From assembly GCA_963751515.1 (NCBI GenBank), contig CAVVUR010000016.1, forward strand, positions 12,086 through 76,085: a stretch of 64,000 nt of DNA, in the 5' to 3' direction. Positions 1 through 19,340 of this stretch are shown piece after piece. Position numbers and translations under genes: made by a program. Source of the DNA: an uncultured delta proteobacterium (GTDB lineage Bacteria; Desulfobacterota; WTBG01). Each line of letters starts with the position of its first letter. Positions within the stretch are counted from its first letter, which is position 1. Under the pieces are notes generated by a model. That model was not told where the DNA came from, did not search any database, and saw nothing but the letters and a program-made list of their open reading frames with translations.

Positions 1-955
1 CAAAGCCCGGGACGAAAAGCTCCTCGATCACCCTCTTGCACGAGGCCTTCACATCTTTGGTAATGCCGCACTCTTCAATATAGCGCTTGATCACCTGCAC
101 CGAGTGGCAGGCGGCCATGGCCGCAACCAGGAAGGGAAAGACCATCACCAGCGGATCCAGGCTGTAGCCCAGCAGCACCAGAAATCCTATGCCCCAGATG
201 CCGCTGATTATGGCCATAAACACCGGCAGCACCATGCCCCGGATCGAGCGGAAGTAGAAGAGAAACAGGGCCAGCATGACCACCAGGGTTATGGCCATGA
301 TGGTCATGATGGTGCCCACATAGCTGTCAATGTACCCCAGGTGCAGCGGCTCACCGGCCATGCTCAGGATATGATTATCATCCTCGTATTTCTTCTGTAT
401 CCTGATCAGCTCCTTGAAGACCACCGAGTAGTCAATCTCGTCATCAAAGAAATCGGCGGTGATCAGGGTCTTTTTGTTGTCAAACCAGACCAGCCCGCCG
501 TAGAAAACGCTGGCATAGACCTGCTCCCGCAGTGCTTGCGCCTCCTCCTGCGTCTTGGGCACGTTGGGAAACATCAGGGGAACAAATTCGTAGCCGCCGG
601 ACTTGAGCTGCATGTCCACCACCGTATTCACCGCCAGCGAAGTAATCTTAAACCGGTCCACCCCAGGGATGTAGTACAGCTCATCGGTTATCTCCCTGAT
701 CTTTTTCAGGGTGGCGGGATTGAAGATGTCCCCCTTGCGCACCTGGAAGATCATGGTCACGGTGTTGGCACCGCCGAACTTGGCCCGGATCTGGTTGTAG
801 GTTTTTATATACTTGTGCCCCTGCGGCAGCAGGTCGGAAAATTTGGTATACACCTTCAAATTGATCATATTGAGCGCAAAGAAAAGCGTTATCAACCCCA
901 TAATGATGAGCACCAGTCCCCTTTTCTCAATTATAAAATCAGCAAACTTTTTCAT
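1..955 (-). CDS. RND/MMPL-family transporter permease, N-terminal part (gene continues past the left edge)
   Basis: This gene is absent from the ORF track because it has no stop inside the window. The reverse complement of 955..1 reads MKKFADFIIEKRGLVLIIMGLITLFFALNMINLKVYTKFSDLLPQGHKYIKTYNQIRAKFGG... This shows TM1 followed by a large soluble loop and then a TM bundle, as in MMPL/HpnN-like RND proteins. The 104..973 '+' ORF is its antisense shadow. Confidence 0.7.
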   Translation of the reverse strand, partial: MKKFADFIIEKRGLVLIIMGLITLFFALNMINLKVYTKFSDLLPQGHKYIKTYNQIRAKFGGANTVTMIFQVRKGDIFNPATLKKIREITDELYYIPGVDRFKITSLAVNTVVDMQLKSGGYEFVPLMFPNVPKTQEEAQALREQVYASVFYGGLVWFDNKKTLITADFFDDEIDYSVVFKELIRIQKKYEDDNHILSMAGEPLHLGYIDSYVGTIMTIMAITLVVMLALFLFYFRSIRGMVLPVFMAIISGIWGIGFLVLLGYSLDPLVMVFPFLVAAMAACHSVQVIKRYIEECGITKDVKASCKRVIEELFVPGF

Positions 956-1020
956 GAGCTTCCCCTTGTGTAAAAAATATACCGGGTAACGATACCCAAA
1001 AAGGTTACCGCATTAATTAA

Positions 1021-2145
1021 TTACTCTCCCACCAGTTCCTTGGGCGGTTTAAATTCCGGCCAGTCATATGAGACACCCGAGAGCCATTCAAAGGTCTTGC
1101 CCCCGTCAATGGTTTTAAATACCGCCCCTGACTTCCCAACCACCCAGCCCACAGTTTCATTCACGAAAGCAACCGAGGTAAGCCAGCCCTTGGTGTGAAT
1201 GGCATCATCATTGTTGGTCCAGGTGTTTCCGCCGTCGCTGGACATGATGTAGGCACCGCGGTTACCCACCGCCCAGCACTTGTCTCCTACCATGGCGATG
1301 GAAAAGAGCGAGTTGGTGGAGGCGCTGTCAATTTTTTTCCACTCCTTGCCGCCATCGTCTGTTTTAAGCAGGGTGCCGTCAACACCTAAAATGAAGCCCC
1401 GCTGCCTGTCGGCAAAACGGATATCAAAGAGGGTCAGCTTCGGCAGCTCCCATTCATTCTCAGCCGTCTTCGGCGCCAAAGCCTCACAGGGACGGATTTC
1501 CCAGTTCTTGCCGCCATCCATGGTGTGATAGATGGAACCGAACTCCCCGACCAGCCACCCTTCATTGGCATCATGAAAGAATACCCCGTTGTAAATCACC
1601 TCCGCCGCAAAGACATTCTCATCGGTGCTCTGCTGTATGGTTTGGGGCTCCCAGGTCTTTCCCCCGTCAGCGGTATGGATGAGGGTCATCACATCGCCCG
1701 CCGCCCAGCCGTTGTTGCTGTCAGGAAAGTGGACGGTAAACAGATGCCTTTTGGTGCCGCTTTGCTGACGTTCCCAGGTCTTTCCCCCGTCCGAAGTATG
1801 TATCACGTTGCCCAGAATGCCCACTGCCCAGCCGTTCTGCCGGTCGGGGAAGCTGATATCGCAGATAAGCTCTCCCGACAGGCCGGTATTCTGAACCGTC
1901 CAGAAGTCCTTTTTGCTGTTTTCATACCTGATCTGGCTGCCCTGGCCGGTAGTGCCCAGATAGCTGTAGTCACCGGCTATGAGGATGTTGTCTTCATCAA
2001 ACGCGACCACCTTGGTAAGATTTTCCCCGACAATGGAAGGTATGTGAGGAACCTTAAAGGTTGACTTCTTCTGCTTGCAGCCCAGGGGTGAAGCAATCAA
2101 AGCCGCACTGATTACCATAATACATAGTTTATACGTGTTCACCAT
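1021..2145 (-). CDS. Ycf48/BNR-like beta-propeller lipoprotein
   Basis: The ORF 1021..2199 was trimmed to the ATG at 2145, which has a GGAGGA RBS 6 nt upstream. A lipoprotein signal (...ALIASPLGC) is present. Repeated 'S/T-DGGKTW' BNR/Ycf48 motifs occur (TSDGGKTWE, TADGGKTWE, TMDGGKNWE, TDDGGKEWK, SSDGGNTW, TIDGGKTF). It lies directly upstream of the RND gene. Confidence 0.7.
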   Translation of the reverse strand: MVNTYKLCIMVISAALIASPLGCKQKKSTFKVPHIPSIVGENLTKVVAFDEDNILIAGDYSYLGTTGQGSQIRYENSKKDFWTVQNTGLSGELICDISFPDRQNGWAVGILGNVIHTSDGGKTWERQQSGTKRHLFTVHFPDSNNGWAAGDVMTLIHTADGGKTWEPQTIQQSTDENVFAAEVIYNGVFFHDANEGWLVGEFGSIYHTMDGGKNWEIRPCEALAPKTAENEWELPKLTLFDIRFADRQRGFILGVDGTLLKTDDGGKEWKKIDSASTNSLFSIAMVGDKCWAVGNRGAYIMSSDGGNTWTNNDDAIHTKGWLTSVAFVNETVGWVVGKSGAVFKTIDGGKTFEWLSGVSYDWPEFKPPKELVGE

Positions 2146-2462
2146 GCCCGATCCTCCACATACATAACGCGTGAGTTTGGAATGCTTCCTTGCATGCATT
2201 TATAAATGAAGCAGAATTATCACTACCCATAATTGCTGTCAATGATAATTTGCCTGCGCGAATCATTTTTAACAAAAAAAATGCCACCGCTGCATCAACC
2301 ATCACTTGCAGAAGCCTCCTGCAACTGATGACCATGGACGATGGATTGAAATAAGCATTATTCATGCTATGGCTTCTGTATGAAAGACGCTTCAGATTTC
2401 AGGTATCTTATTGCCTTTCACCCGTGACATGTGAGTATCCTGCATCGTGTATGTGTAACTCG

Positions 2463-4175
2463 CTACTTCCTCTCCACCGGAGGCATTTTGTAATGGGCGC
2501 GCAGCCCGTTGATGCCGTCAATCATCTCCTGCGGCATGGCCTTCATTTCTTCCTCGCTGAACACCTGCCTGCCGGGCGCGCAAATGCTGCCGGGATCAAA
2601 AATCCTTCTCAGCTTTCTGAAGAGCAGGTGCACATTGGGCCCGTGTTCCGGAAAAAAAGTGGTAAGCGGTTCAATGGCCACGCCTATTCCAATGGCAGGG
2701 TATTTCTGCGAGACGAAATCAGCCACCGCGGCAACGGTGAGACCCCGCGCCCGGTTGAGCTTCTCCGGGTCAAGCGGATCAGGATACACATCCGCCTCCG
2801 ACAGCCAGTGCCTGCTTCCCCGTTCGATGGCGTAAAGAAACGGCGTGTCATCGATGCCGCCGCGGTCGGTGATGAAGGTTTCGCCCATGGCATTAATGGT
2901 GCGCCCCCAGATTTCCCTTGTTTTATAGGCGGTGTCCTTGAGCAATCCACCGGGAACGATGGATCCCCCGTAAAAAAAGCGGTTCATCCTGAAGCCGGTC
3001 ACGTGCCTGATGCAGTCCAGGTTCCAGGGCGCAAGTGCGTACAGCACATCCCCCTTGTATTCCGGGGTGAGGAAGGTGGCCTTGTGCTCCGCCATGATCT
3101 CGCGAAACACCTTCTCCTCGTACTCCATCTGCGCCTCAGAGGTAACGCCGTAGAGGATCACATAGAGGTTGAACGGGGGAAAGAATTTGCTGGTAACCCT
3201 ATCCATGGTCATGGCCTGGGTCTGGGAGCAGTAGTATGCGTTGTACACCCCGGTGGCATTGAGCCCCATACCGATGCCCGACTGGGCAACCGCGTGGAGC
3301 GCCCTGACCTCGGAATCGTAATCGGGAAATTCAACCCAGAGGAGCTTTACCCGGTCAGGAGGGGGCGCGGTGTCGTAGCGGGGCTCGTGATAGTCGGGAA
3401 TGGAGGGGCGGCCGGCGGGCGGTTCAGGCAGCTCGACACCCCCCGTCCAGGAATGAAGCTTGACTTTTATTTCGGTGATGATGCCGGTCGTGCCCGCTCC
3501 GCCTCTCACCAGGCTCAGCAGGTCCGGGCCGGGCCCGTATTCCCAGAGACAGTTGGCGCCTGAAACGGTGTCCGACCCGGTTATCAGGATATCGCCTGTA
3601 GGAAGCACCACCTTAATGCTCACGATGTTCCTGGTGAGCGTTCCGTACTTGAGATCGGTCTGCCAGATGCCGGCGAATGCCGACTGGGAGGATAATTTGC
3701 AGAGGGTGGTGGCGAGGGGTGTTCCTCCGTTCCAGAGACCCCGCTTCATCGCTTCCGCCTGCAGCTGTCCGTAGTCCCCATAAGCCTCCAGGGTGGCGGT
3801 GAGATTTTCCTCGTCTATATGCACGCGGTTCATCCTGCTCACGTGAACACAAATAGTGGGAAGCGGTGTGGTCGGCCCGTTGAAGGCGATCATCCCGTTG
3901 GTAAAGGGAATGACCTGAACCCCGAAGCGGTTGGCGATGCGCATGATCGCCTGCACCTCTTCGGTCGATCCCGGCAGGACAATGCATGCGGGGATCATCG
4001 TGGCGTCCCGCTGGTGCTTTCTCAAAACCCCGCCGGTATCCACCGAAAAGCGGCTGTAGGTTTCAATAACCGCCCGGTCTTCCGAAATCCACTCCGGGCC
4101 CACCACATCCTGCAGCGCCTGGAAGACATCCCGTGAAACCTTGTTGGGAATTACCTTTGCTTTGGGCTCTGACAT
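2463..4175 (-). CDS. FAD-binding oxidoreductase, VAO/PCMH (FAD_binding_4) family, long form (570 aa)
   Basis: The N-terminal FAD-binding region reads ...PACIVLPGSTEEVQAIMRIANRFGVQVIPFTNG...VHVSRMNRV. The GlcD-like C-terminal motif FDPGSICAPGRQV is present. It is a paralogue of 5962..7683. Confidence 0.8.
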   Translation of the reverse strand: MSEPKAKVIPNKVSRDVFQALQDVVGPEWISEDRAVIETYSRFSVDTGGVLRKHQRDATMIPACIVLPGSTEEVQAIMRIANRFGVQVIPFTNGMIAFNGPTTPLPTICVHVSRMNRVHIDEENLTATLEAYGDYGQLQAEAMKRGLWNGGTPLATTLCKLSSQSAFAGIWQTDLKYGTLTRNIVSIKVVLPTGDILITGSDTVSGANCLWEYGPGPDLLSLVRGGAGTTGIITEIKVKLHSWTGGVELPEPPAGRPSIPDYHEPRYDTAPPPDRVKLLWVEFPDYDSEVRALHAVAQSGIGMGLNATGVYNAYYCSQTQAMTMDRVTSKFFPPFNLYVILYGVTSEAQMEYEEKVFREIMAEHKATFLTPEYKGDVLYALAPWNLDCIRHVTGFRMNRFFYGGSIVPGGLLKDTAYKTREIWGRTINAMGETFITDRGGIDDTPFLYAIERGSRHWLSEADVYPDPLDPEKLNRARGLTVAAVADFVSQKYPAIGIGVAIEPLTTFFPEHGPNVHLLFRKLRRIFDPGSICAPGRQVFSEEEMKAMPQEMIDGINGLRAHYKMPPVERK

Positions 4176-4205
4176 ATATCATCCTCTCCTGAAAGCCTTC
4201 AGAAT

Positions 4206-5678
4206 TTAAAAGCACAATTTTCCGGGGTTGAGAATGGCATTCGGATCAAGCTCCTGTTTGATCTGCCGAAGCTTGGTGGTATACTCACCCGCCCGCCCAT
4301 AGATCATTTCCGCCCACGGCCCGTAAGGACGGTCAAAATATGCCCCGTGGTTGATGAGTGTCTGCGCGGCCCCGGTCCAGAGGTTCTTGACCCTGCGGGT
4401 CTCCAGATCGTCGTTCAGGTCACAGTGAAGATCAAACTCGCAGTGCACCGCCCTGCCCCGTTCCAGCGGGAGCAGGTACCCGCCGAAAGAAGATACGCTG
4501 TAACCGGCCGCTTCGCACTCGTTCCGCACAATCTCCTCCATCTCCGCCAGCGACTGCAGCGAGCATTTAAAGCTCAGGCTGTGCACCGATCCCCGGTAAT
4601 TGAATTTCTTGAGAATGCCCCAGGGATAAAGGATCTCGTTGAGCATCAACCGGCTCAACCCGCTCACCTGGGGGAGGGTTTCTTTAACTTCGACATTAAG
4701 AGCGTGACAAACCTCTTGTAATGCCTCTGTTTCATAGGCAATCTTTTCCTCGGGATGCCTGGGCCCACCGATAATACAAAGTGCCAGCATCCAGGCCGGG
4801 AGAATGCTCCGGTATCGTTCAAAGCTCTCGGAAGGCCTGGGTGCAGCGGGAAATGCATCCGGCACCGTCCACTCGTGGCTCAAGAGGGAAGCCAGGTTAA
4901 ACCGGTTGAGGAGAAAGCACTCCAGGCCGATTTCCCTCCGCTGTATCCTTTTCAAAGGCTCACGCGCATCAGCCAGCGCGTTGAAGCTTAAGAAATACAT
5001 CTTCCGTTCCCTGATGAAAGGCTCAATCTTGACGTTCATCTTGGTCATGATGCCGAGTGTGCCCTGCGCGCCGGTCCAGAGGCGGAAGATGACGTTTCTC
5101 ACCGGACCCAGCGGTCCTCCCGGAGCGCCCCCCGCGCACCATGTGCCGGTTTTAAACAGCTCGCCATCGGGAAGCACGATCTCGGTGTCCATGATAAGAA
5201 AATTGCCCGATTCAAAGCTGGGCGCCGCCATGACCGGATCCCGTTCCAGGAAACTGGTGAGGACGGAACGGGCGGGTGGCACGCCGAAAGGAATCAGCAC
5301 CCGGAACCCCTTCTCCAGCAAGGCGGCCTGGAGCTGGGCATAGGTAACCCCCGGCTCAACCACCGCGGACCAGTTCTCTTCATCGATCTGAATGATCCTG
5401 TTCATGCGCGAAAGGTTCACCATGATCCCGCCGTGGTCCGGGAGGGCTGCGCCATGAAAATTCAAGCCCGAGCTGTAGGGAATGAGCGGGGTCCGGGTTT
5501 CATTGGCCAGCCTCACCACCCGCTGCACTTCCTCGGCCGTCCCGGGGAACACCACAAAATCAGGCATGCGCTTCGGCGCAAATGACTGATCATGGGAATA
5601 TGCCTCAAGCGTTGCGGCATCGTCTAAAACCCGCTTCTCGCCAAAAATATCCACCAGCTGTTGCCGTGTCAGCGCCAT
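4206..5678 (-). CDS. FAD-binding oxidoreductase, GlcD/VAO family (490 aa)
   Basis: Family landmarks are ...FVVFPGTAEEVQRVVRLANETRTPLIPYSSGLNFHG...VNLSRMNRIIQIDEEN...GAQGTLGIMTK... and the C-terminal LDPNAILNPGKL. Confidence 0.8.
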   Translation of the reverse strand: MALTRQQLVDIFGEKRVLDDAATLEAYSHDQSFAPKRMPDFVVFPGTAEEVQRVVRLANETRTPLIPYSSGLNFHGAALPDHGGIMVNLSRMNRIIQIDEENWSAVVEPGVTYAQLQAALLEKGFRVLIPFGVPPARSVLTSFLERDPVMAAPSFESGNFLIMDTEIVLPDGELFKTGTWCAGGAPGGPLGPVRNVIFRLWTGAQGTLGIMTKMNVKIEPFIRERKMYFLSFNALADAREPLKRIQRREIGLECFLLNRFNLASLLSHEWTVPDAFPAAPRPSESFERYRSILPAWMLALCIIGGPRHPEEKIAYETEALQEVCHALNVEVKETLPQVSGLSRLMLNEILYPWGILKKFNYRGSVHSLSFKCSLQSLAEMEEIVRNECEAAGYSVSSFGGYLLPLERGRAVHCEFDLHCDLNDDLETRRVKNLWTGAAQTLINHGAYFDRPYGPWAEMIYGRAGEYTTKLRQIKQELDPNAILNPGKLCF

Positions 5679-5820
5679 ATACGGTTCTCCTTAATTTATT
5701 CCGATTGGGTATCTATAGTGAATCAGCGTTCATTAGTCAAGCACTAATAGCAGGCAGTGGTGAGCCTCAGGCATGCGCGTCCGGGCATCATTATTCAGTG
5801 CAGCCGGGACATCGGCCGGT

Positions 5821-5938
5821 CTTAAAATCCGAAATCCGAATATCGAAATCCGAAACCACATACTGATGTGTGATGTGAGATCTGGGATATGAGATTAAAA
5901 TTTTTTTTAGCCCATATCACAAATCGCATATCCCATCC
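5821..5938 (+). repeat. Intergenic repeat family 3, copy 1 (heptamer tandem + hairpin with A/T loop)
   Basis: The sequence cttaaaatccgaaatccgaa...tgatgtgtgatgtgagatctgggatatgagattaaaattttttttagcccatatcaca recurs in inverted orientation at 56345..56438. It starts with tandem AATCCGA-like heptamers. It lies between two FAD-oxidase genes. Confidence 0.65.
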
Positions 5939-5961
5939 CGCATGGATTTAGTGCTTCGAAT

Positions 5962-7683
5962 TTATACTGTAATAGTATCCATGTTAAAAAGATTACGCAA
6001 CTGGTTCAGCTTTTGCACCGCCTCTGTGGGATACTTCTTGAGCTCTTGCTCGGTCAGCACCTGCCTGCCGGGGCTGCATATGCCCTGCGGGTCAAAGACC
6101 TTTCTTAATTTTCTCAGCAGGAGATGGACATTGGGGCCCTGCTCGGGGAAAAAGGTGACCAATGGTTCAGCCGGGCCACCGAAGCCGAAGGGCGCGCAGT
6201 GCCGCTCGGCGCCATTTTTAACCGCGCTGTACATGGTTATGGCAACACATTGTTCCAGCGAATGAGGGTCCAGCGGATCCGGGTAGATATCCGTCTCCGA
6301 GAGCGTGTAGCGCCCCGCCGGCTCTATGCCGTACACAAAGGGGGTTGTTTCCGCCCCGCCCCGGTCGGTGACGTGTGTCTCACCGAAGCGCTCGAGCGCT
6401 TCACGCCAGAGCCCGCTGTGGTAGAGGGCCACCTCGGGCGGACCCGCGGGAAGGCTCCCGCCCGCGTACATGCGCCGGTTCATGCGATAGCCGCAGACAT
6501 TCCTGATGCAGTCCAGATTCCAAGGCTGAAGCGCCTCGAGAACCTCCGGCTTGTAGTCGCGGGAGAGAAACCTGCCGCCCTGCTCTTCCGCTATCTCCCT
6601 GAGGACCTTTTCCTCATATTCCAGCTGGCCCTCTGATACGATGCCCGCGCAGATGACATAGAGGTTAAAGGCGGGGAAAAAATTGCCCGTCGCCCGCTCC
6701 TCGGTCATTTTCTGGGTGGGGGAACAGTAATAGGACGAATACACCCCCGAGGCATTGAGCCCGATGCCGATGCCCGCGTGGGCAATGGCCCGGTATGCCC
6801 TGATTTCAGATTCGCAGTCGGGAAACTCTATCCAGTGGATGCGGTGCTGAGGCGGGGCAGGGGCATGATCATAGCGCTCATCGGCATAGCAGGGAATGCA
6901 GGGCCTTCCCGCCAGCGGTTCCGGCATCAGCTCCCCGCCGACCCAGGTGTGCAGCTTGACGGTCACCTCGGTAATGATGCCGGTGGTCCCGGCGCTGGCG
7001 CGCACCACCCCGGTGAGGTCAGGGCCCGGCCCGCTCTCCCATACGCGGCCAACGCCCGCAACCGCGGGGGAACCGGTGCTCATGATTTCACCGGTGGGCA
7101 GCACCAGCTTTATGTCCACGATGTTTCTGTCCAGCAGGCCGTATTTCTTGCTGGTCTGCCAGATGCCCGCAAAGGCCACCTGGGAAGCGAGCTTGCACAG
7201 GGTGGTTGCCAGCGGCGTCCCGCCATTCCAGAGCCCCACCCTGGCGGCCTCGGCCATGAGCTGCCCGTAGTCGGCATAGGGCTCAAGTGTGGCCGTCATG
7301 AGCTGCTCATCGACGGACAGCACCCGGTTCATCCGGCTCAGGTGAATGCAGATCATGGGCGCGGGAAAGGTGGGGGCGCTCATCATTTGGCCGTTGGTGA
7401 AGGGTATGAAAGGAACCCGGTAGCGATGGGCGATCCTCACCACTGACCGCACTTCATCGGTGCTGCCCGGCAGCACCACGCAGGCGGGAATGCTGGAAGC
7501 ATTTTTTGCGTGCTTCTTTAAAAACCCTTCCGCGTCCAGCGAGAGCTTGCTGTAGGTTTCCAGCACCGCCCGGTCCCGGGAAATCCACTCCCTGCCAACG
7601 ACACGCTCCAGTGCCTGGTAGATGTCGTCCGGCAGCTGTGCCGGAATTATTTTTTTCTTTTCAGCGGGAGGATTCATGCTCAT
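5962..7683 (-). CDS. FAD-binding oxidoreductase, VAO/PCMH family, long form (573 aa)
   Basis: It is collinear with the 2463..4175 product over its full length (…PACVVLPGSTDEVRSVVRIAHRYRVPFIPFTNG…; C-terminal FDPQGICSPGRQV). Confidence 0.8.
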   Translation of the reverse strand: MSMNPPAEKKKIIPAQLPDDIYQALERVVGREWISRDRAVLETYSKLSLDAEGFLKKHAKNASSIPACVVLPGSTDEVRSVVRIAHRYRVPFIPFTNGQMMSAPTFPAPMICIHLSRMNRVLSVDEQLMTATLEPYADYGQLMAEAARVGLWNGGTPLATTLCKLASQVAFAGIWQTSKKYGLLDRNIVDIKLVLPTGEIMSTGSPAVAGVGRVWESGPGPDLTGVVRASAGTTGIITEVTVKLHTWVGGELMPEPLAGRPCIPCYADERYDHAPAPPQHRIHWIEFPDCESEIRAYRAIAHAGIGIGLNASGVYSSYYCSPTQKMTEERATGNFFPAFNLYVICAGIVSEGQLEYEEKVLREIAEEQGGRFLSRDYKPEVLEALQPWNLDCIRNVCGYRMNRRMYAGGSLPAGPPEVALYHSGLWREALERFGETHVTDRGGAETTPFVYGIEPAGRYTLSETDIYPDPLDPHSLEQCVAITMYSAVKNGAERHCAPFGFGGPAEPLVTFFPEQGPNVHLLLRKLRKVFDPQGICSPGRQVLTEQELKKYPTEAVQKLNQLRNLFNMDTITV

Positions 7684-7789
7684 TGCGCATCATTGTGGAA
7701 AGGGGCGGGAAAATGAAAGGCGGGGTGTGGCAGGCATTGTGCTGCACCCCGCTGACTGCTCTTCCCGAATTATCGCCGCAGTGGAGCGG

Positions 7790-9136
7790 CTAGCCGCGGG
7801 CCTGCATGGGGAAGCCCGCCCTGATGCACCCGTCAAAAACGGCGGCAAGCGGCACATTCCGCATCCCTACCAGCTTCTGATGAATAACGGGCCGCTGCTT
7901 GGCAACGGCCGGCATTATCTCCGCCAGGGCGCCGCCGACCAGTTTGGGGGTCTCATAAGGATCAAGGATGCTGGGCAGTGATTTTTTAACCAGGCTCAGC
8001 ACGAAGTCAATCTCGTCAGGGGTGAGCCGGAGGGGAAGCACGGCATTGCGCATCATGCTTCGGTAGTCGTATTTATCCAGCACCTCCTCTTTCCACCAGC
8101 GGAGGTAGGATGAAACCCCTTCGCGGGATATTTTTCCATCGGTCAGGGCAAAGCTGACGGCGTTGGCCGCCTTCCAGCCGCTGATAACCGCCCCGGTCAT
8201 CTCCGCCTCCTGGCACCACACCGCGTCGGAGACAAGCAGCACCTGGTCCTTGTAAGGATCGACAATGTGCGACTGCGCGTTGCCCGCGGAGGTCAGGGTG
8301 CGCTTTATCTCTGCCTTTTCGAACCAGGGCGCGAAAAATCCTTGTGTCGAGAATCGTTCAAAGGCGCCGGCGAGGTCCTGGCCGGGGCTGAGCGAGGTGG
8401 TCATGACGAAGTAGGTGTCCTCCGTCGTCCGCGGTGTCATCCACACGCGCTTGGAAGGTGTCTCGTCGAGAAATATCTGGAAGAGGGCAAATTTTTCCGG
8501 CGGCTTTACCCCCACCATTTCATACCCCAGGGTCACCGCAGTGCCGAAATACTTCCGATCCCGGTTGCAGCCCAGGGTGTGGGCTATTCTAGAGGCGCGG
8601 CCGTCGGCGGCGATGACGAAGGTGCCCCTGAAGGACCTTCCTTCGCGGGTGAAAACCGTCACCCTGCCTCCCTGCAACTCGGTCCGGATTACATTATACG
8701 GGTTATAGACATCAACCTTCAGGGCGCAGGCCTCCTCCAGGAGGCAGCGCAGCAGCGCCCCCTTATCGTACGTCGCGCTCACCCTGCCGCTCTCGCCCCT
8801 GCGCTCATTCTCTTCATAGTTGCCGAGCTGGATTTTGTTGCCCCGGTGGGAGTATATAGCCCAGGTGAAAAAGTCCTGGTGGGGGCCGTCATAGTTGACG
8901 GTAAAACCGTATCCCGGGAAGCAAAGCTTCTTGTCCCGGCTGTTTAAGCGTACCCGCTCCTCAAGATATTTCCCGGTCAGGGTCACCACCATCATGCTGC
9001 AGGCACGGTTGATATCAGTAATGTGCTCTTTTCGCTCGATCAGGGCCACGCTCAGCCCGTGTTCAGCTGCTGTTTTGGCTGCCATCAGGCCGGCAGGCCC
9101 TGCGCCGACTACGATCAGATCATATTCTCCGGGCAT
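7790..9136 (-). CDS. FAD-dependent oxidoreductase, geranylgeranyl-reductase/FixC-like superfamily
   Basis: A Rossmann motif YDLIVVGAGPAGLMAAKTAAEHGLSVALIERKE is present. The start was moved to the ATG at 9136, which has a GAGGAG RBS about 6 nt upstream. It is a paralogue of 12910..14208. Confidence 0.75.
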   Translation of the reverse strand: MPGEYDLIVVGAGPAGLMAAKTAAEHGLSVALIERKEHITDINRACSMMVVTLTGKYLEERVRLNSRDKKLCFPGYGFTVNYDGPHQDFFTWAIYSHRGNKIQLGNYEENERRGESGRVSATYDKGALLRCLLEEACALKVDVYNPYNVIRTELQGGRVTVFTREGRSFRGTFVIAADGRASRIAHTLGCNRDRKYFGTAVTLGYEMVGVKPPEKFALFQIFLDETPSKRVWMTPRTTEDTYFVMTTSLSPGQDLAGAFERFSTQGFFAPWFEKAEIKRTLTSAGNAQSHIVDPYKDQVLLVSDAVWCQEAEMTGAVISGWKAANAVSFALTDGKISREGVSSYLRWWKEEVLDKYDYRSMMRNAVLPLRLTPDEIDFVLSLVKKSLPSILDPYETPKLVGGALAEIMPAVAKQRPVIHQKLVGMRNVPLAAVFDGCIRAGFPMQARG

Positions 9137-9212
9137 CTTCACTCCTCTCATCATTCGTCATTACAATCAGTCTGCGCCGCTGCTCACACGCTCATGAGCG
9201 GCCACCGGCCCG

Positions 9213-9425
9213 TTACTCGTCAAGAATAGTGATCGCCTTTTCCGGGCAGGCGTCCTGGCAGGAAAGACAGCAGTGGCAGATCACGCCCGCCTCTTCGATT
9301 GCCTTGGCTTTTTTCTTTCCGTCCGGTGTTTCAATCAAAACCCACAGTTCCAGGCCGCACTGCTCAAGGCACTGCCCGCAGCCGCGGCACTTTTCCAGAT
9401 CGACCAGATGTTTCACCATATGCAT
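9213..9425 (-). CDS. 4Fe-4S dicluster ferredoxin (70 aa)
   Basis: Two cluster motifs are present: CRGCGQCLEQC and CHCCLSCQDACP. Confidence 0.75.
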   Translation of the reverse strand: MHMVKHLVDLEKCRGCGQCLEQCGLELWVLIETPDGKKKAKAIEEAGVICHCCLSCQDACPEKAITILDE

Positions 9426-9434
9426 GACACCTCA

Positions 9435-9842
9435 TCACAAAGTAGACTTAACCTCATCAACCATTTTTTTAAAGCGGGGATCTGATTCATACAGCCGGAC
9501 CATGGCATCGAAAAAGGGAAAGGTGGCCATGAGGTGGACGGGAACGTTGGGATCGGTCATATCGCCCTTCAGCAGCTCACCCTTGTCCTTGATTTCCATG
9601 AGATCGAAGGTGTTGTCGATGGCGCTGCAGAGATCAGCCGTTTTCAGCTTCAGCACCACGTGGCAGTCGTCCCGTATCCCCTGCTCCAGATAGAGCTTGC
9701 CGTCTTTTACCACCTGGGTGAACTCGTGCGCGTCAAGCTTCATGCCCACCTTGTGGTCACTGAAATCAGCCATCATCCCCTGCGCCGTTTCATCCGCATT
9801 GGTAAAATCGGCGCCTGCCGCAAGCATTTCCATAACCGACAT
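9435..9842 (-). CDS. Small soluble protein, SCP2 sterol/lipid-carrier-like (tentative)
   Basis: A GGGAGG RBS lies 8 nt upstream of the ATG at 9842. The C-terminal half (…LKTADLCSAIDNTFDLMEIKDKGELLKGDMTD…FPFF) resembles the SCP2 'G-K-L-x-I-x-G-D' region by eye only. Confidence 0.55.
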   Translation of the reverse strand: MSVMEMLAAGADFTNADETAQGMMADFSDHKVGMKLDAHEFTQVVKDGKLYLEQGIRDDCHVVLKLKTADLCSAIDNTFDLMEIKDKGELLKGDMTDPNVPVHLMATFPFFDAMVRLYESDPRFKKMVDEVKSTL

Positions 9843-9855
9843 GTCTCATCCCTCC

Positions 9856-10584
9856 CTAAAAATAGACAGCATTAAGCAGCTTGATCATGCCATCACCCAG
9901 TTCTTCCCGTACCGGACCCGGCAGCATTTCCGTAAAAAAATGGGCGCGCAGGGTGGTGCGCAGCGCCGAACGTTTTGCCGCCAGCTCCTTTTTCTTCGCC
10001 TCATCGGTAACCGGCACCGCCTCGGCAAGAAACGCGAGGTAGCTCTTGAGATATTCAGTGTGCGGGGCCAGGGCCGCCAGGCGCATCCCCTCCTTCTCGA
10101 TGGGAACCCGGGCCGCGGTGTAAATGATGGAGGCGAGAGAGCGGATGACATCGCTTTCCTCGGGACAAATGCCGGGCAGGGCGGCAAACCGGTCCCAGAG
10201 GGGCTGCACCGACTCAATATACTTCTTGCGGTATTCCTCATCCACCAGGCTGTCCACCGTGGGGATGATATCAACCAGAAGCATGACCTCCTCCGGCCCC
10301 TCTTCGAGACGCGAGAGAAACAGGGGCAGGTCATAGGCTTCCCCGGGCATGATGCTGCAGAAGGCAAAGTGCCTGCTGCCGGCATGGACAAAGGAGCCGA
10401 TGCCTATTTTTTCCAGCTTGTCAGCGCGGTATGCGCTGAACCCTCCCCGCGCTTGGCCTCTGGCAAACTCCAGTGCGGGCGCAAGATTCTGCCCATTCCA
10501 CTCCTGAAGCGCGGTGGGCTGCAGCGAATCAATCAGTCCCTTCATTTTTTCCAGATAGGGTGTCCATTTCACGCCTGCATCCAT
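9856..10584 (-). CDS. Ferredoxin-dependent bilin reductase (Fe_bilin_red)-like protein, divergent copy B
   Basis: An AGGAGG RBS lies 7 nt upstream of the ATG at 10584 (the track ORF starts at 10608). The core reads …FAFCSIMPGEAYDLPLFLSRLEEGPEEVMLLVDIIPTVDSL… This parallels the PcyA segment …YGLPLFGCDIVAG…AIADLSPT… by eye. Confidence 0.55.
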   Translation of the reverse strand: MDAGVKWTPYLEKMKGLIDSLQPTALQEWNGQNLAPALEFARGQARGGFSAYRADKLEKIGIGSFVHAGSRHFAFCSIMPGEAYDLPLFLSRLEEGPEEVMLLVDIIPTVDSLVDEEYRKKYIESVQPLWDRFAALPGICPEESDVIRSLASIIYTAARVPIEKEGMRLAALAPHTEYLKSYLAFLAEAVPVTDEAKKKELAAKRSALRTTLRAHFFTEMLPGPVREELGDGMIKLLNAVYF

Positions 10585-10597
10585 TTCTCTACCTCCT

Positions 10598-11365
10598 TTA
10601 AAAGACAAGGCTCACGAAGAGGTGGCTTTTTTCCGCGCCAAAAATCTTTTTCATCACCTCTCCGCCCGGATCAAGATCGCGGTAATATTTCTGGGTCTTG
10701 CTTTTTCTGCGCAGCATCTCCTGCCGGTACCCCTCATCCCGAATGGGCTCCGCCTGCTTCAGCAGGTCAAGCCACACCCTGGCATAGGCAACCACCGCCT
10801 CCATCAGTTTCACCCGGTCCACCTTCTCCTCCACCCGCCCGTCAAGGCTGAAGGGAGAGAGCGACTCGCGCGCCCAGGGCCAGGGCCCGTACCGTCTCTG
10901 CACCAGACACCGTCCCTCACTGGTAAATCCCGGTATGGTGCGGTACTTCCGCCACAGCGGCGCTATCTCCCGGTAGTATTTTTGCAGGTACTCCTCGTGC
11001 CGGGCGATGTCCACCGTGGGCATTAAATCCATGGTCACGCCCACCCGCGGCGCCGTTTCGTCAAACTCGCAGGCATAGATGGGCAGGTCATAATCGTTGC
11101 TCGCGGTCATGTTCAGGGCGCAGTACTTGGCCCGTCCCATGTAATGCAGCTCACCGATGGTAATCTTCTCGATTCTGTCGCTTCCCTTGATGAGGTATGG
11201 CTTGTAGAAGCCGGTGGCCATGGGTGTTTTAAACTCCCAGGCCGGCCTGGTGTCCATGCCCTGGTAGGTTTCAAGCGGCACCAGCTCCAGTCCTTCAAAC
11301 AGCCTATAATCCTCCACGATCACCTTCTCGAACGCCGTCATCTCATTCCATGCTACCTTTGCCAT
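10598..11365 (-). CDS. Ferredoxin-dependent bilin reductase (Fe_bilin_red)-like protein, copy A
   Basis: A GAGGAG RBS lies 7 nt upstream of the ATG at 11365. Two regions match FDBR landmarks by eye: …KYCALNMTASNDYDLPIYACEFDETAPRVGVTMDLMPTVD… and the C-terminal …YYRDLDPGGEVMKKIFGAEKSHLFVSLVF. The corresponding PcyA/PebA landmarks are '…LP.FGCDIV…DLSP…' and '…NDP…FG…F'. Confidence 0.6.
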   Translation of the reverse strand: MAKVAWNEMTAFEKVIVEDYRLFEGLELVPLETYQGMDTRPAWEFKTPMATGFYKPYLIKGSDRIEKITIGELHYMGRAKYCALNMTASNDYDLPIYACEFDETAPRVGVTMDLMPTVDIARHEEYLQKYYREIAPLWRKYRTIPGFTSEGRCLVQRRYGPWPWARESLSPFSLDGRVEEKVDRVKLMEAVVAYARVWLDLLKQAEPIRDEGYRQEMLRRKSKTQKYYRDLDPGGEVMKKIFGAEKSHLFVSLVF

Positions 11366-11496
11366 AACCACACTCCTCTTGTACGGTGGGTATTCCTGTC
11401 CGGCTTCGCCTTCATTTCCTTACGCTGCGGTTAAGCAACCGGCCGCGGCTGGCCCCTCAAATGCACCGGCATGCAAAACAATAGTTCCATAAAAAT

Positions 11497-11525
11497 TTGA
11501 CTGTACATTCGGATTCTGCTACCAT
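11497..11525 (+). promoter_or_regulatory. Candidate sigma70 promoter for the outer-membrane protein gene
   Basis: The elements are TTGACT (11497-11502), a 17-nt spacer and TACCAT (11520-11525). Confidence 0.3.
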
Positions 11526-11574
11526 ACCCACATCCGCTTACTTTATTCATAAGGGCTACGCTATGGTTCGAAAT

Positions 11575-11603
11575 TAACTATCATCCGCCTGAGCCTCTGT
11601 CAA
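11575..11603 (-). promoter_or_regulatory. Candidate sigma70 promoter for the FDBR-like/flavoprotein operon
   Basis: On the minus strand the elements are TTGACA (11603-11598), a 17-nt spacer and TAGTTA (11580-11575). The -10 element is weak. Confidence 0.25.
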
Positions 11604-11763
11604 CCGATAAATACAACTTTCCGTAAATCGACTTCTTCTTTCTGTTTGAGTGTATCAACAGACCATAGATATAACAATGTACTCTCCAGACCGTCCGATA
11701 AAAACATCCGGTACTCATTCAAGCGCGCGCTGTCGGACGTTGCGCAGGCTGTGCCGGTGGGGT

Positions 11764-12840
11764 ATGTTCATTGTATTCATGATTATCATCCGGCCTGTTA
11801 CCGCCTCTGCCGATAATGGACCTGTGCCGCCCGGTCAAGTATCAATAATCGGAGATGCGGCATTGCAGGACAGCGGAGTGACGAGACCGGAGGTGCGGCT
11901 TTTAGACTACGATGAAAAAGAAACCTCCCCTTCGATGCGGATGCTGCTGAGCGGCAAGAACCGGGCGAACGCAGAAACAGGTGATACGCGGCATGCTGCT
12001 CCTGACGATGCGGAATCAGGCAACGGGCAGGCCAACGCCCGGCACAAATGGCAAACGGTTCTGCCGGTGCTGGGAGAGGAGGCTGAAGCAAAGGGGCATA
12101 CCCTTCCCCTGGCCTTCGGGGTAATGCCGAGTTTCTATTCCGGAAGGCGGCACATCAGCGTGAGCGACGCGCAGGTTTCCATCAAGGGCCGGGCCATTGC
12201 CGTGGACGGGCTGACCGACATCAAGGTGAAGAGCAGGGAACTGAACTGGGCGCTGCGCCTTGACGCCTGGCTGTTCCCCTTTATGAACGTCTATGGGCTG
12301 TTCGGGTACACGCGCGAGGATGCCGATGCTTCAGTAGGTCTTACCCCCTACGATCGCCTGCGCAAGCGGTTTGGCAAACACCCCCGGGATCTTGACATAC
12401 ACATTGACCTGACCGGCGTCACCTACGGCGTGGGATATACCCTCGTCGGGGGATATAAAAAATTCTTTGCCTCATACGATTGGAATTACACCATCAGCGC
12501 GCTTCGGGGCAACATACCTTTGGGAAACAGCCTGAGTCCCGATGTGAAGGCGATGCTGAACTCCGTCCGCCTCGGATGGAGAGCGCAGGCGGCTGACTGT
12601 AAGATCAACCTCTGGATCGGCGAGACCTATTGGGACACCACCAACACCATAAAGGGCGACCCCCGGGTTCCGGTTTTGGGAACGGTCAAGTTCAGGGTGC
12701 GGGAGAAGACCTCGAAGCCGTGGAGCACTCACATCGGAACCAACGTCGAACTGTCGCCGTCCATTCAACTGGTGCTGGACATGGGATCAAACTTTTCCGG
12801 TCTTTTCGCCATCGCCCCCACCATCATGTACCGTTTCTAG
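11764..12840 (+). CDS. Putative outer-membrane beta-barrel protein
   Basis: A signal-like N-terminus (MFIVFMIIIRPVTASA) is present. An alternative start at 11677 would add a basic n-region. The mature part has alternating-polarity strands, and the C-terminal …TIMYRF ends in an aromatic residue, as OMPs typically do. Confidence 0.55.
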   Translation: MFIVFMIIIRPVTASADNGPVPPGQVSIIGDAALQDSGVTRPEVRLLDYDEKETSPSMRMLLSGKNRANAETGDTRHAAPDDAESGNGQANARHKWQTVLPVLGEEAEAKGHTLPLAFGVMPSFYSGRRHISVSDAQVSIKGRAIAVDGLTDIKVKSRELNWALRLDAWLFPFMNVYGLFGYTREDADASVGLTPYDRLRKRFGKHPRDLDIHIDLTGVTYGVGYTLVGGYKKFFASYDWNYTISALRGNIPLGNSLSPDVKAMLNSVRLGWRAQAADCKINLWIGETYWDTTNTIKGDPRVPVLGTVKFRVREKTSKPWSTHIGTNVELSPSIQLVLDMGSNFSGLFAIAPTIMYRF

Positions 12841-12858
12841 CAGCTGGTAAGAAACAAA

Positions 12859-12883
12859 AGGCCGGGGATGCATGTCCCGGCCT
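12859..12883. terminator. Hairpin between convergent genes (possible bidirectional terminator)
   Basis: The sequence aggccgggg-atgcatg-tcccggcct forms a 9-bp stem. It is flanked by A/T-rich runs on both sides. Confidence 0.45.
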
Positions 12884-12909
12884 GGTATTATTCAGCAAAC
12901 GCGCGCGTC

Positions 12910-14208
12910 TTAGCCGTCCTTGAGGCTGCTTTCAAGGGTACTGCTGCGGACGCTCCTGATTTTTGCGTAGGTGGCAGGGCGTTCCCGCTCAATCTTCTTC
13001 GGATCGCGCAGGATTGCGTCCCATATCATCCGGGATGACTTGTACTGGCTGAAGCTCCCGTCCAGGAGCACATCCTCACACAGGCCGAAAAGGTAGTCAA
13101 GCTCGTCATCGGTGTAGGTAGGCACAAAGGCATATCCCTGCTGCACCTGCATCATACCCTTGTCATTGAACTCAAATGATTTAAGCCACCAGTCGGCGTA
13201 TTCCGCGAACCCCGTTTCACCCTTGAGTTCCCTGGCAACCGCCTCCGCGGCCTTATAACCGCAGCTCAAAGCCCCCTGCCCCTGCACTTCAACAAACGCG
13301 GCAGAATCTCCTATAATTATAGTATTGCCTTTGCAGGGCTGGGCAATAGGGGTAAATGCCTTGACCGAACAGCAGTAGCGCTCTTCAATCTTGGCGTTGG
13401 CGAACCGGTCGGCTATGGGGCTGTCTTTGGTAAACCGGCCAAAGGCCTCCAGCGGCAGGTCCCGGGGACTGCCGAGACTAATCACATCCGCCCAGTCCTC
13501 AAAATGGCCGGCAGGCCCGGTGCCGATGATGGGAGCAAGATTTGAGCCGTAGCACCTGCCATACCAGAGAACCCACTCGGCAGGGTTATAGTGCTTCACA
13601 CCCGACATGTAGCTGGCCATGCAGAGGGCAAAACCCATGTAGCCGCGATTGGCATTGAAACCCATTGCCTGCCCCAGTCGGGTATTGCAACCGTCGGCGA
13701 TGATGAGCTTTTTCGCCTTCACTTTCTCCTTCTTTCCCCTGCTTACGCACTTGACCTCAACCCCCTGGGCGCTGTCGATCGCGTCATAGCCGCTGGTTTC
13801 ATTTCTGAAGGTGACCCCCAGCGCCAGACATTCCTCGAGCAGGCTCCCCAGCAGGAAACCCTTGTCGTACTTGTAGGCATACGGCCGGCGGTCAGGCCAG
13901 GCGAAGTGGATGGCCCTGCGCTTGGGAGAATAGTACCATTTGTCTATGCAGGGGAACAAAGCCCCCTTATAGTCCACCACCCACCCGTTCACCGTGGAGG
14001 TTATGGTGCCTTTTTTAGGATCCACTAAAACCGTATCTCCATTATAGTCTTCATCGAGTATCAAATGCTCGCTGCAGTAACGGGTAATTTTGGAGATGTC
14101 TTTGCGCTTCTCAATGAGAATCGTCTTGAGCCCCTTCTTGGCCGCCCACTTGGCAGCATGCACACCTCCGGGACCGGCGCCCACAATGGCAAGATCGTAA
14201 ACCGTCAT
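12910..14208 (-). CDS. FAD-dependent oxidoreductase, geranylgeranyl-reductase/FixC-like superfamily (paralogue 2)
   Basis: The N-terminus reads MTVYDLAIVGAGPGGVHAAKWAAKKGLKTILIEKRKD… The overall architecture resembles 7790..9136. It is the last gene of the NuoEFG-like operon. Confidence 0.75.
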   Translation of the reverse strand: MTVYDLAIVGAGPGGVHAAKWAAKKGLKTILIEKRKDISKITRYCSEHLILDEDYNGDTVLVDPKKGTITSTVNGWVVDYKGALFPCIDKWYYSPKRRAIHFAWPDRRPYAYKYDKGFLLGSLLEECLALGVTFRNETSGYDAIDSAQGVEVKCVSRGKKEKVKAKKLIIADGCNTRLGQAMGFNANRGYMGFALCMASYMSGVKHYNPAEWVLWYGRCYGSNLAPIIGTGPAGHFEDWADVISLGSPRDLPLEAFGRFTKDSPIADRFANAKIEERYCCSVKAFTPIAQPCKGNTIIIGDSAAFVEVQGQGALSCGYKAAEAVARELKGETGFAEYADWWLKSFEFNDKGMMQVQQGYAFVPTYTDDELDYLFGLCEDVLLDGSFSQYKSSRMIWDAILRDPKKIERERPATYAKIRSVRSSTLESSLKDG

Positions 14209-14257
14209 TACTTCCTCCTTGGATGCTTACATATTCATTCAGAATTGCGGCAACTCT

Positions 14258-15196: not shown

Positions 15197-15236
15197 AAAT
15201 ATCATCCTCTCTCGTATCGCTACGCCGTTTATGCCC

Positions 15237-17709: not shown

Positions 17710-17752
17710 TACCTGCTCCTTTCAACGATATCCCGAAGCCGGGACACTCATC

Positions 17753-18484: not shown

Positions 18485-18768
18485 TCCTCCTTGAACATGC
18501 TGATGGCCCCGAACCAGCATTCCCGGTGGCATATGCCGCAGCCCTTGCACTTGGCGGTATCAGCTTCGAAATAACCCTCCTCATTGCGGAACACCGCACC
18601 GTCGGGACAGTACACAAAGCAGAGCCCGCAGCGGATGCATTTGTCCTTGTCCCACTCCGGCGTCCACTCCCGCGCGTCTCCCGGCCGAAATGGCGTGCCA
18701 CTGCCCTGATCAAGCAACGAGCAGCTGATCATCTTTTTCTGAAATCCCGCAGTCGATTCCAAAATCAC
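18481..18768 (-). CDS. PFOR delta-subunit-like 2x[4Fe-4S] ferredoxin
   Basis: The sequence …DKDKCIRCGLCFVYCPDGA…DTAKCKGCGICHRECWFGAI… has the typical PorD layout. Confidence 0.7.
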   Translation of the reverse strand: MILESTAGFQKKMISCSLLDQGSGTPFRPGDAREWTPEWDKDKCIRCGLCFVYCPDGAVFRNEEGYFEADTAKCKGCGICHRECWFGAISMFKEE

Positions 18769-19263: not shown

Positions 19264-19340
19264 TGGTGGCGGTGCAGGGAGTCGAACCCCGGACACTGCG
19301 GATATGAGCCGCATGCTCTAACCACCTGAGCTACACCGCC
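19264..19340 (-). tRNA. tRNA with CAU anticodon (elongator Met type; lysidine-modified Ile2 not excluded)
   Basis: The reverse complement is GGCGGTGTAGCTCAGGTGGTTAGAGCATGCGGCTCATATCCGCAGTGTCCGGGGTTCGACTCCCTGCACCGCCACCA. It folds as a cloverleaf with a 7-bp acceptor stem, anticodon loop CTCATAT and an encoded CCA. The 1:72 position is paired and the anticodon stem lacks the GGG/CCC triplet, so it is not an initiator. Confidence 0.9.

Follow-up and report, generated by a model that had tools for sequence, protein, structure and literature searches.

A conserved gene core with ferredoxin-dependent bilin reductase-like proteins in uncultured sediment Thermodesulfobacteriota-type bacteria

The closest described relatives of the proteins considered here are the ferredoxin-dependent bilin reductases (FDBRs; PcyA, PebA/PebB, PebS and HY2) and red chlorophyll catabolite reductase (RCCR). 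Rockwell et al. regard all enzymes of the FDBR fold as ultimately oxygen-dependent, and bacterial FDBR relatives outside phototrophs, termed pre-PcyA 1-3, are found in contexts of heme oxygenase (HO), Fe-S, two V4R plus globin (BBAG), or B12-binding plus globin (PMC10151467). Frascogna et al. noted uncharacterised clades and asked whether earlier FDBRs exist (PMC13446030). We analysed a 64,000 nt stretch of DNA from an uncultured delta proteobacterium (assembly GCA_963751515.1, contig CAVVUR010000016.1; hereafter the window), in which positions 2463-11365 encode two FDBR-like paralogues, FDBR_A and FDBR_B, together with an SCP2-like protein, a ferredoxin and four flavoproteins. The first four of these genes form a core that recurs across related genomes. 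The locus places a known enzyme fold in a new conserved context and belongs to no pathway described so far; searching the literature for the gene combination and for the accessions of family members returned no description and no mention, in agreement with the first-pass annotation of this DNA, which had not recognised the combination as a described pathway.

That annotation had counted nine genes in an operon. ORF calls and translations gave eight, all co-directional on the minus strand as it had stated; its own list likewise adds up to eight (three, one, one, one and two), and scans for open reading frames and Rfam families revealed no credible ninth ORF, riboswitch or Rfam RNA in the spacers of 2463-11365. 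In order of transcription the spacers measure 13, 13, 9, 58-76, 106, 283 and 30 nt. They are therefore mostly short, as had been described (9-106 nt, with one of 283 nt), but none of the genes overlaps. The eight genes and the longest spacer are as follows:

10598-11365, minus strand: FDBR_A, FDBR-like paralogue A, 255 aa, the first transcribed of the eight
9856-10584, minus strand: FDBR_B, FDBR-like paralogue B, 242 aa
9435-9842, minus strand: SCP2-like protein, 135 aa, SCP2 fold from a structure model
9213-9425, minus strand: ferredoxin, 70 aa, Fer4 family matches and two 4Fe-4S motifs
7790-9154, minus strand: GGR1, FAD flavoprotein of the geranylgeranyl reductase (GGR) superfamily, 454 aa, start probably at 9136
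5962-7683, minus strand: VAO573, vanillyl alcohol oxidase (VAO)-type flavoprotein, 573 aa, PF01565 at 79 bits
5679-5961, no strand: spacer of 283 nt with short direct repeats and an imperfect hairpin just 3' of the VAO573 stop
4206-5678, minus strand: VAO490, VAO/GlcD-type flavoprotein, 490 aa, PF01565 at 89 bits
2463-4175, minus strand: VAO570, VAO-type flavoprotein, 570 aa, PF01565 at 70 bits

FDBR_A matches PF05996 at 51.6 bits, above the Pfam cut-off of 31, and a profile built from 22 sequences retrieves tomato HY2 at E 1e-13. Its AlphaFold2 (AF2) model (pLDDT 88.3) shares the alpha/beta/alpha sandwich fold of the solved FDBRs. Foldseek placed this model on HY2 structures 6kme/6kmd at TM 0.74-0.76 and on the set of HY2, PebB, RCCR, PcyA and PebA at TM 0.65-0.77, with HemF next, at an identity to solved FDBRs of 13-18 % in the same alignments. 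Across the family Glu100 is invariant and the motif D232-P-G-G near-invariant, among many invariant residues. In profile alignment to HY2, Glu100 falls on the central-sheet proton-donor position, with the His88 equivalent uncertain, and Asp232 on the distal Asp (SlHY2 Asp263). The former position is Asp105 in PcyA and PebS, Asp122 in KflaHY2 and Asn in land-plant HY2, and the distal Asp is required for A-ring reduction (bioRxiv 10.1101/2022.08.22.504806, PMC13316938). Judged from these alignments, FDBR_A appears to keep acidic residues at two catalytic positions, and we propose that it is a catalytic reductase.

FDBR_B scores 25.5 bits with PF05996, under the cut-off of 31, and is a clear paralogue of FDBR_A (26 % identity, E 2e-24), so the FDBR-like pair named in the first-pass annotation stands. 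The FDBR_B family consensus reads S-(R/Q)-W-E-E where FDBR_A has C-E-F-D-E, which puts Arg or Gln at the first acid position; its C-terminus is not conserved and offers no conserved distal Asp, and the family has strongly conserved motifs of its own. The adjacent paralogues recall the pebA-pebB pair. With FDBRs and RCCR the locus shares the alpha/beta/alpha fold, detectable sequence homology and a ferredoxin gene alongside, as well as, by alignment, probable acidic residues of FDBR_A at the central-sheet and distal positions. It differs from them in its host, a presumably anaerobic member of the Thermodesulfobacteriota, in its 13-18 % identity, in a ferredoxin of 2x[4Fe-4S] type, in the presence of an SCP2-like protein and a hydrophobic-compound transporter, and in an FDBR_B that lacks the acid residues. 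A pre-PcyA-type context was considered and rejected, as the HO, globin, V4R and B12-binding contexts that define it occur neither in the window nor in any mapped locus.

The 135-aa SCP2-like protein has no Pfam or NCBIfam match at E <= 0.01, and its earlier assignment was borne out by the fold. The AF2 model (pLDDT 91.5) matched SCP2, AF1534 and UbiJ-SCP2 in Foldseek with probability 1.0 and TM 0.55-0.72, and the top 29 PDB matches were all SCP2 or SCP2-like domains (probability 0.99-1.0), including AF1534, TT1886, UbiJ-SCP2 and alkylsulfatase C-terminal domains. Mean column identity in the family is 82 %, which is unusually high conservation for a passive carrier, and a metal, cofactor or docking site is hinted at because His30, Asp59-Cys60-His61 and His103 are invariant. 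From the modelled fold, we propose that the protein may act as a carrier of the hydrophobic substrate. The ferredoxin retains eight Cys in 68 distinct orthologues (CxxCxxCxxxC ... CxxCxxCxxxCP) and is therefore of the 2x[4Fe-4S] type with two clusters, which together with the Fer4 matches upholds its original naming. We propose it as the electron donor to the FDBR-like enzyme.

Related loci, numbered here with the prefix L, were mapped by BLAST against our own reference protein set, with Pfam support for representative members. FDBR_A has about 100 close database relatives (53-98 % identity, ~255 aa), all of them unnamed proteins from metagenome-assembled genomes (MAGs) or metagenomes. Among 185,579 species representatives we identified 30 loci, all in uncultured MAGs and with no cultured carrier among the 30 matches; nearly all are labelled Thermodesulfobacteriota or Deltaproteobacteria, and several record names point to sediment (Lac Pavin, Alinen). 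A scan of 1.84 billion cluster representatives yielded 125 related clusters at E <= 0.001, and a metagenome scan with the SCP2-like protein as query added 80 further loci. Relatives of the cluster are confined to uncultured sediment Thermodesulfobacteriota-type bacteria. FDBR_A and FDBR_B lay upstream of the SCP2-like gene in all 63 loci with enough upstream sequence, and the ferredoxin lay downstream of it in 80 of 84. Twenty-one loci extend at least 6 kb to each side; of these, 17 have GGR-like proteins, 19 have VAO-type proteins, and 14 have the BNR and RND proteins of an Ame-type transporter, described below. The first gene after the ferredoxin was BNR in 26 related loci and GGR1-type in 24. 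Because the accessories swap, what stays invariant is the four-gene core FDBR_A-FDBR_B-SCP2-ferredoxin, usually with the Ame-type transporter attached, and the block of GGR plus three VAO genes is one accessory set among several. Conservation of the neighbourhood in related genomes had been set beforehand as one test of the first-pass annotation: the arrangement is conserved in so many genomes that it lies far beyond chance, with the four-gene core, and not the eight-gene array, as the conserved unit.

The presence in one tight block of a ferredoxin, an acid-keeping cofactor-free fold and a lipid-carrier fold argues for proton-coupled, ferredoxin-driven reduction. With moderate confidence, we propose that the core carries out a ferredoxin-driven, cofactor-free reduction of a hydrophobic, conjugated and probably tetrapyrrole-derived substrate.

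Several layouts surround the core. The window-type array recurs in L005, L006, L012, L035, L041 and L042. In one alternative, MFS, GGR and VAO504-CCG-VAO546-ETFbeta/alpha genes (ETF, electron transfer flavoprotein) lie upstream of the core and the Ame module downstream; in another, VAO/CCG arrays flank the core on both sides; in a third, the core is accompanied by a TetR regulator, a HemG-like flavodoxin protein and a PNPOx protein. In seven loci (L015:4524-9200, L088, L089 and L094-L097) genes for a corrinoid protein, a URO-D-family methyltransferase, an MtrH/MtgA-like protein and RACo come directly after the ferredoxin. Six MAGs carry two FDBR_A-family loci and, where sequence suffices, these are either core clusters with different accessories or a core together with an arrangement of FDBR_A plus MFS. 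A third, more divergent FDBR-like paralogue of 245-274 aa (PF05996 at 23 bits in the one member tested) was observed in L003:19011-19802, L020, L023, L031, L010, L011, L071, L076 and L084, often after DUF1329 or upstream of the core and sometimes adjoined by an SDR, alpha/beta hydrolase or PNPOx gene.

The core and its flavoproteins are the middle of a larger cluster, which spans approximately 1-18550 of the window (~20 kb) and continues with DUF1302 and DUF1329 past the left edge. The flanking genes are:

1-955, minus strand: RND/MMPL inner-membrane transporter, AmeD-like, of which the N-terminal 318 codons are present; runs off the left edge
1021-2145, minus strand: Ycf48/BNR lipoprotein, AmeC-like, COG4447 type, PF14870 at 138.8 bits
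11764-12840, plus strand: putative outer-membrane protein, divergently oriented, with a signal-peptide-like N-terminus and the C-terminus ...MYRF; no Pfam match
12910-14208, minus strand: GGR2, second GGR-superfamily flavoprotein, syntenic in L005, L006, L009, L012, L041 and L042
14258-15205, minus strand: HoxU/NuoG-N-terminal-like Fe-S protein, PF13510 plus Fer4 domains
15237-16967, minus strand: NuoF/HoxF-like NADH-binding FMN Fe-S subunit, PF01512, PF10589 and SLBB
16960-17709, minus strand: NuoE/HoxE-like [2Fe-2S] subunit, PF01257 at 90.5 bits
17753-18550, minus strand: PorB-C-terminal-like protein, 265 aa, first gene of the upstream redox unit

Of the flanking genes named in the first-pass annotation, the RND N-terminus and the Ycf48/BNR lipoprotein were as described, and its outer-membrane barrel at 11764-12840 is a signal-peptide protein that ends in an aromatic residue and has no Pfam match; an orthologue occupies the same place in L005, L006, L012, L041 and L042. 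The BNR protein has a lipoprotein-like N-terminus (MVNTYKLCIMVISAALIASPLGC), and an exact-sequence look-up of this protein with both start codons found no record. Homologues of the window RND protein match PF03176 and are named RND exporters. In L035, a 94 % relative, the RND gene is followed by DUF1302, DUF1329 and then unrelated genes, and DUF1302 plus DUF1329 follow BNR/RND in L035 and at least 12 other loci; the window ends short of both. Read together with L035, the window cluster has an AmeABCD-type envelope system of BNR, RND, DUF1302 and DUF1329 proteins. The RND gene alone is not diagnostic, because two contexts of its subfamily (L037, L038) are unrelated to the core. The known Ame-type system is needed for monoterpene growth or tolerance in Castellaniella defragrans, and the DUF1302/DUF1329/BNR/RND set is important for Tween 20 and fatty-ester fitness in Pseudomonas putida. 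AmeABCD and the Pseudomonas sets resemble the present system in holding all four families (BNR/COG4447, RND, DUF1302, DUF1329) in one block, a likeness that is homology at the Pfam-family level only. They differ in gene order, and the known systems are tied to monoterpene tolerance or fatty-ester use and not to FDBR-like enzymes.

The transporter could instead belong to a biosynthetic cluster that tailors the cell's own lipid-soluble pigment or cofactor, such as a reduced tetrapyrrole or prenylated compound, which the Ame-type machine would export to the outer membrane. Export of a cell-envelope component by DUF1302/DUF1329/BNR/RND proteins has been proposed, as quoted in a preprint (bioRxiv 10.1101/2020.07.04.188060), known FDBRs are biosynthetic, and the core proteins are highly conserved, the SCP2-like protein at the mean column identity given above. 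We nonetheless consider this reading quite improbable. Six MAGs have two FDBR_A-family loci in the pairings given above, the accessory modules swap (demethylases, alpha/beta hydrolases and dehydrogenases with ETF among them), and TetR-type regulator genes adjoin some clusters; this combination is typical of loci for substrate-specific catabolism or detoxification. Upstream biosynthetic genes are absent.

Upstream of the core, the HoxU-like protein (14258-15205) matches HoxU and FeFe-hydrogenase A6 N-terminal models, both under their cut-offs. The NuoE-, NuoF- and HoxU-like genes resemble HoxEFU modules, from which they differ in the absence of hydrogenase subunits, and are plausibly an NADH-to-ferredoxin route. 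The protein encoded at 17753-18550 matches NF008818 and NF008819 at ~130 bits, under the cut-offs, and its gene is syntenic in L005, L006, L009, L041 and L042. It was observed to match the C-terminal half only of 2-oxoacid:ferredoxin oxidoreductase beta subunits (PorB, PadI).

GGR1, described earlier as a GGR/FixC-like reductase, matches TIGR02032 (GG-red-SF) at 75.4 bits, under the cut-off of 158.8, and PF01494 at 56 bits; its PDB matches (GGR, FixC and halogenase structures) mainly cover the FAD-binding N-terminus, and alignment to FixC 7koe_C extends over residues 9-46 only (E 1.4e-4). GGR2 is 27 % identical to GGR1 and reaches 63.1 bits with TIGR02032, again below 158.8. Both are accordingly related to the GGR family only distantly, at the superfamily level, and the earlier assignment of GGR1 stands to that extent. 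PF01565 (FAD_binding_4) is present in all three VAO-type proteins at 70-89 bits, in keeping with their earlier placement among VAO and p-cresol methylhydroxylase (PCMH) enzymes. The phenol-binding residues of the 4-phenol subfamily are not kept. VAO490 has His where EUGO has the phenolate-site Tyr91, and VAO570 has Ile/Gly opposite PCMH Tyr473/Arg474 in a weak alignment (E 0.17), its C-terminal half being marginally PCMH-like. A 4-phenol-oxidising VAO/PCMH reading was rejected on the loss of the phenolate-binding Tyr/Tyr/Arg triad from VAO490 and VAO570, a loss that appears to weaken a simple alkylphenol reading without identifying the VAO substrates. VAO570 and VAO573 are paralogous (57 % identity), VAO490 also matches TIGR00387 glcD at 90 bits, under the cut-off, and VAO570 orthologues lie directly upstream of FDBR_A in L013, L014 and L030.

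These flavoproteins raise the alternative of a generic flavoprotein or electron-transfer cluster, FixABCX-like or of GlcDEF/lactate type, in which the FDBR- and SCP2-like proteins would be non-catalytic or chance neighbours. GGR-like proteins do belong to COG0644 'FixC', and many loci contain ETF alpha/beta, GlcD/GlcF-like and ferredoxin genes. In other cluster types ETF alpha/beta and a FixC-COG flavoprotein resemble FixABCX/ETF modules, although neither GGR1 nor GGR2 is close to FixC. A FixABCX complex was rejected for the window, which contains no ETF genes, has a GGR1 matching FixC only over the short N-terminal FAD-binding segment noted above, and encodes a two-cluster ferredoxin. FixX is unlike such a small two-cluster ferredoxin. 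The FDBR_A-B-SCP2-ferredoxin block, moreover, is invariant while the flavoproteins vary, and FDBR_A is acidic at the catalytic positions and has many invariant residues. The chance that the cluster is generic in this sense therefore seems to us very slight.

In the ferredoxin-driven reduction that we favour, the dedicated ferredoxin would pass single electrons to the cofactor-free FDBR-like enzyme, which would protonate and reduce at least one C=C bond of a hydrophobic molecule whose pi system is extended; the acting enzyme may be FDBR_A alone, the A/B pair, or A and then B as in PebA/PebB. The SCP2-like protein would hold or hand over the substrate molecule, and the AmeABCD-type machine (BNR lipoprotein, RND pump, DUF1302 outer-membrane protein and LolA-like DUF1329 protein) would carry it across the envelope. 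Low-potential electrons would be drawn from NADH through the HoxEFU-like diaphorase in the window type, and from GlcDEF-like VAO/CCG dehydrogenases with ETF in the other types. GGR-like and VAO-type flavoproteins would modify side chains.

The substrate is probably tetrapyrrole-derived, for example a chlorophyll, haem or bilin-type breakdown product, and this is the weakest step of the explanation; we hold to a tetrapyrrole-type molecule tentatively, with a confidence that comes close to an even balance. The first-pass annotation had suggested chlorophyll/phytol or bilin-type breakdown products, isoprenoid quinones or carotenoids; of these candidates, those of tetrapyrrole type gain a measure of indirect support. 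A tetrapyrrole is favoured because every known member of the fold acts on one and because HemF-like and weakly ferrochelatase-like proteins are found in related loci. All Foldseek matches of FDBR_A at E <= 0.001 were tetrapyrrole enzymes (FDBRs, RCCR and HemF) bar two chains, both from the chloroplast Ycf2/Orf2971-FtsHi motor complex. A sister arrangement comprises two HemF-like genes of 250 aa (PF01218, above cut-off) followed by an FDBR_A-like gene and an MFS transporter, with no FDBR_B, SCP2 or ferredoxin (L033:8165-12113, L119:7908-12122 and L120:8355-12098). A ParA/NifH-like ATPase and a dodecin gene were seen nearby in these loci; L033 and L119 also have genes for a chelatase-like protein and an alpha/beta hydrolase on the upstream side. 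Three separate secreted or membrane-anchored families in related loci each display sub-threshold ferrochelatase matches, the ChelLike family at E 2.8e-4, a 659-aa family at E 0.0097, and the K family in 10 of 11 PDB profile matches, all at E ~0.09. The K family (alignment A4; L030:184-2904 and homologues) consists of secreted proteins or lipoproteins of 580-906 aa with no Pfam or NCBIfam match; it has the conserved motifs EKIGVIYVVHGG and YERIGGxDP and adjoins the core in >10 loci. Alpha/beta hydrolases, PNPOx-like proteins and a HemG-like flavodoxin domain also recur in related loci. The closest full-length homologue of the window RND protein (70 % identity over the N-terminus) stands beside a chelatase set in L036:1858-11871, where CobN/ChlH-like (1300 aa), ChlI-like and ChlD-like genes directly precede the RND gene, and PNPOx, SDR and DUF169 genes follow it.

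Plant chlorophyll breakdown (pheophytinase, Mg-dechelatase, PAO and RCCR) offers a parallel in its RCCR/FDBR-fold reductase, and in the alpha/beta hydrolases and weakly chelatase-like proteins of related loci; there, too, the substrate would be a hydrophobic tetrapyrrole. Unlike the plant pathway, the present loci show no ring-opening oxygenase and their hydrolases are generic. The analogy to a dechelatase is drawn from ferrochelatase matches that lie below threshold, and SGR of plants is not related to these proteins.

A number of observations weigh against ferredoxin-driven reduction of a tetrapyrrole. The ferredoxin is not the plant-type [2Fe-2S] protein of known FDBRs, FDBR_B is without the acid residues of FDBR_A, and the 105 related loci are partly redundant, the same organisms having been sampled in different collections. 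Among the Pfam-annotated neighbours in L001-L004, L035, L119 and L120 there was no heme oxygenase (PF01126), nor any ChuW-type radical SAM or other ring-opening enzyme, so a linear tetrapyrrole would have to come from outside. The ferrochelatase-like signals all lie below curated thresholds, the ChelLike profile had no match when compared with the PDB, and hhalign found no relation between the ChelLike and K families. Finally, the corrinoid methyltransferase system found with the core in seven loci is typical of aryl-methyl-ether demethylation, and therefore indicates methoxylated aromatics rather than tetrapyrroles.

This last observation bears on a reading with the same architecture in which the enzymes would act on a hydrophobic compound of methoxylated aromatic or quinone type, such as lignin- or lignan-derived phenylpropanoids, stilbenes, or isoprenoid quinones, for example ubiquinone. 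Here the target of reduction by the FDBR-like enzymes would be a conjugated side chain or a system resembling a quinone methide, alkyl or prenyl chains would be left to the VAO and GGR proteins, and methoxy groups would be stripped by the corrinoid system. The latter, set directly after the ferredoxin in the seven loci, contains the four components of corrinoid O-demethylases of the Mtv, Odm or Mto type (corrinoid protein, substrate methyltransferase, methyl-tetrahydrofolate methyltransferase and RACo). VAO-type enzymes occur in 19 of the 21 well-covered loci, Ame-type transporters are known for monoterpenes and fatty esters, UbiJ, a binder of ubiquinone intermediates, is among the nearest SCP2 folds, and the GGR family includes the menaquinone reductase MenJ. 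Set against this, no characterised protein of the FDBR, RCCR or HemF fold has a non-tetrapyrrole substrate (PMC10151467), and the VAO proteins are without the Tyr/Tyr/Arg phenolate site. The URO-D-family substrate subunit is very divergent, gave nothing significant against the PDB and is not near any solved O-demethylase, and the window-type cluster has no corrinoid system. On balance, we consider an aromatic or quinone substrate somewhat unlikely.

The 283-nt spacer at 5679-5961, which the first-pass annotation had described as filled by a repeat element, does contain an 11-nt direct repeat (CGAAATCCGAA) present twice and a 14-nt inverted repeat, but the element is minor: it occurs once in the window, and its hairpin barely beats shuffled sequences in stability (z -1.66). 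The spacer is kept in the 94 % relative L005 and is not alignable in L012, which is 80 % identical; it is possibly an internal terminator or promoter region. A scan for sigma-70 promoters and terminators gave no more sites than shuffled sequence, and matches to a sigma-54 promoter pattern were rarer than chance, with none upstream of FDBR_A. The VAO570-BNR spacer (2146-2462) differs in length by ~740 bp from that of the 94 % relative (L005:18916-20003), where an additional 191-codon ORF, not present in the window, was seen. Beyond the cluster the window holds housekeeping genes. A tRNA-Met (CAT) gene lies just past the right-hand end (19264-19340, minus strand). Large proteins with BACON_2, thrombospondin type 3 repeats and a dockerin domain are encoded at 21564-23102 and 25109-27625, followed by a GAF-sigma54 activator at 28584-30110, all probably unrelated to the cluster. 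A full-length bacterial serpin is encoded at 56466-57695 (PF00079, 436 bits).

Taken further, the tetrapyrrole reading would make this cluster the first oxygen-independent pathway for the uptake and reductive dismantling of hydrophobic tetrapyrroles (chlorophyll-, phyllobilin- or haem-derived) in anoxic sediments, by way of an oxygenase-free lineage of the FDBR/RCCR/HemF fold. We think this unlikely. No paper on an anaerobic pathway acting on the tetrapyrrole ring came up in our literature search. An enzyme lineage in anaerobes with its own 2x[4Fe-4S] ferredoxin, and in which no heme oxygenase was seen, bears both on the oxygen dependence stated by Rockwell et al. and on the question raised by Frascogna et al. 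If true, an oxygen-independent tetrapyrrole pathway would contradict the view that the fold always depends on O2, and could supply the 'archae-FDBR' sought in studies of bilin evolution; were the substrate instead a methoxylated aromatic or quinone, the fold would have its first chemistry outside tetrapyrroles. Little is known at the enzyme level of what becomes of chlorophyll, bilins and other greasy conjugated pigments in anoxic soils and sediments, and this conserved, transporter-linked cluster of widespread uncultured sediment Desulfobacterota provides a concrete, testable gene set.

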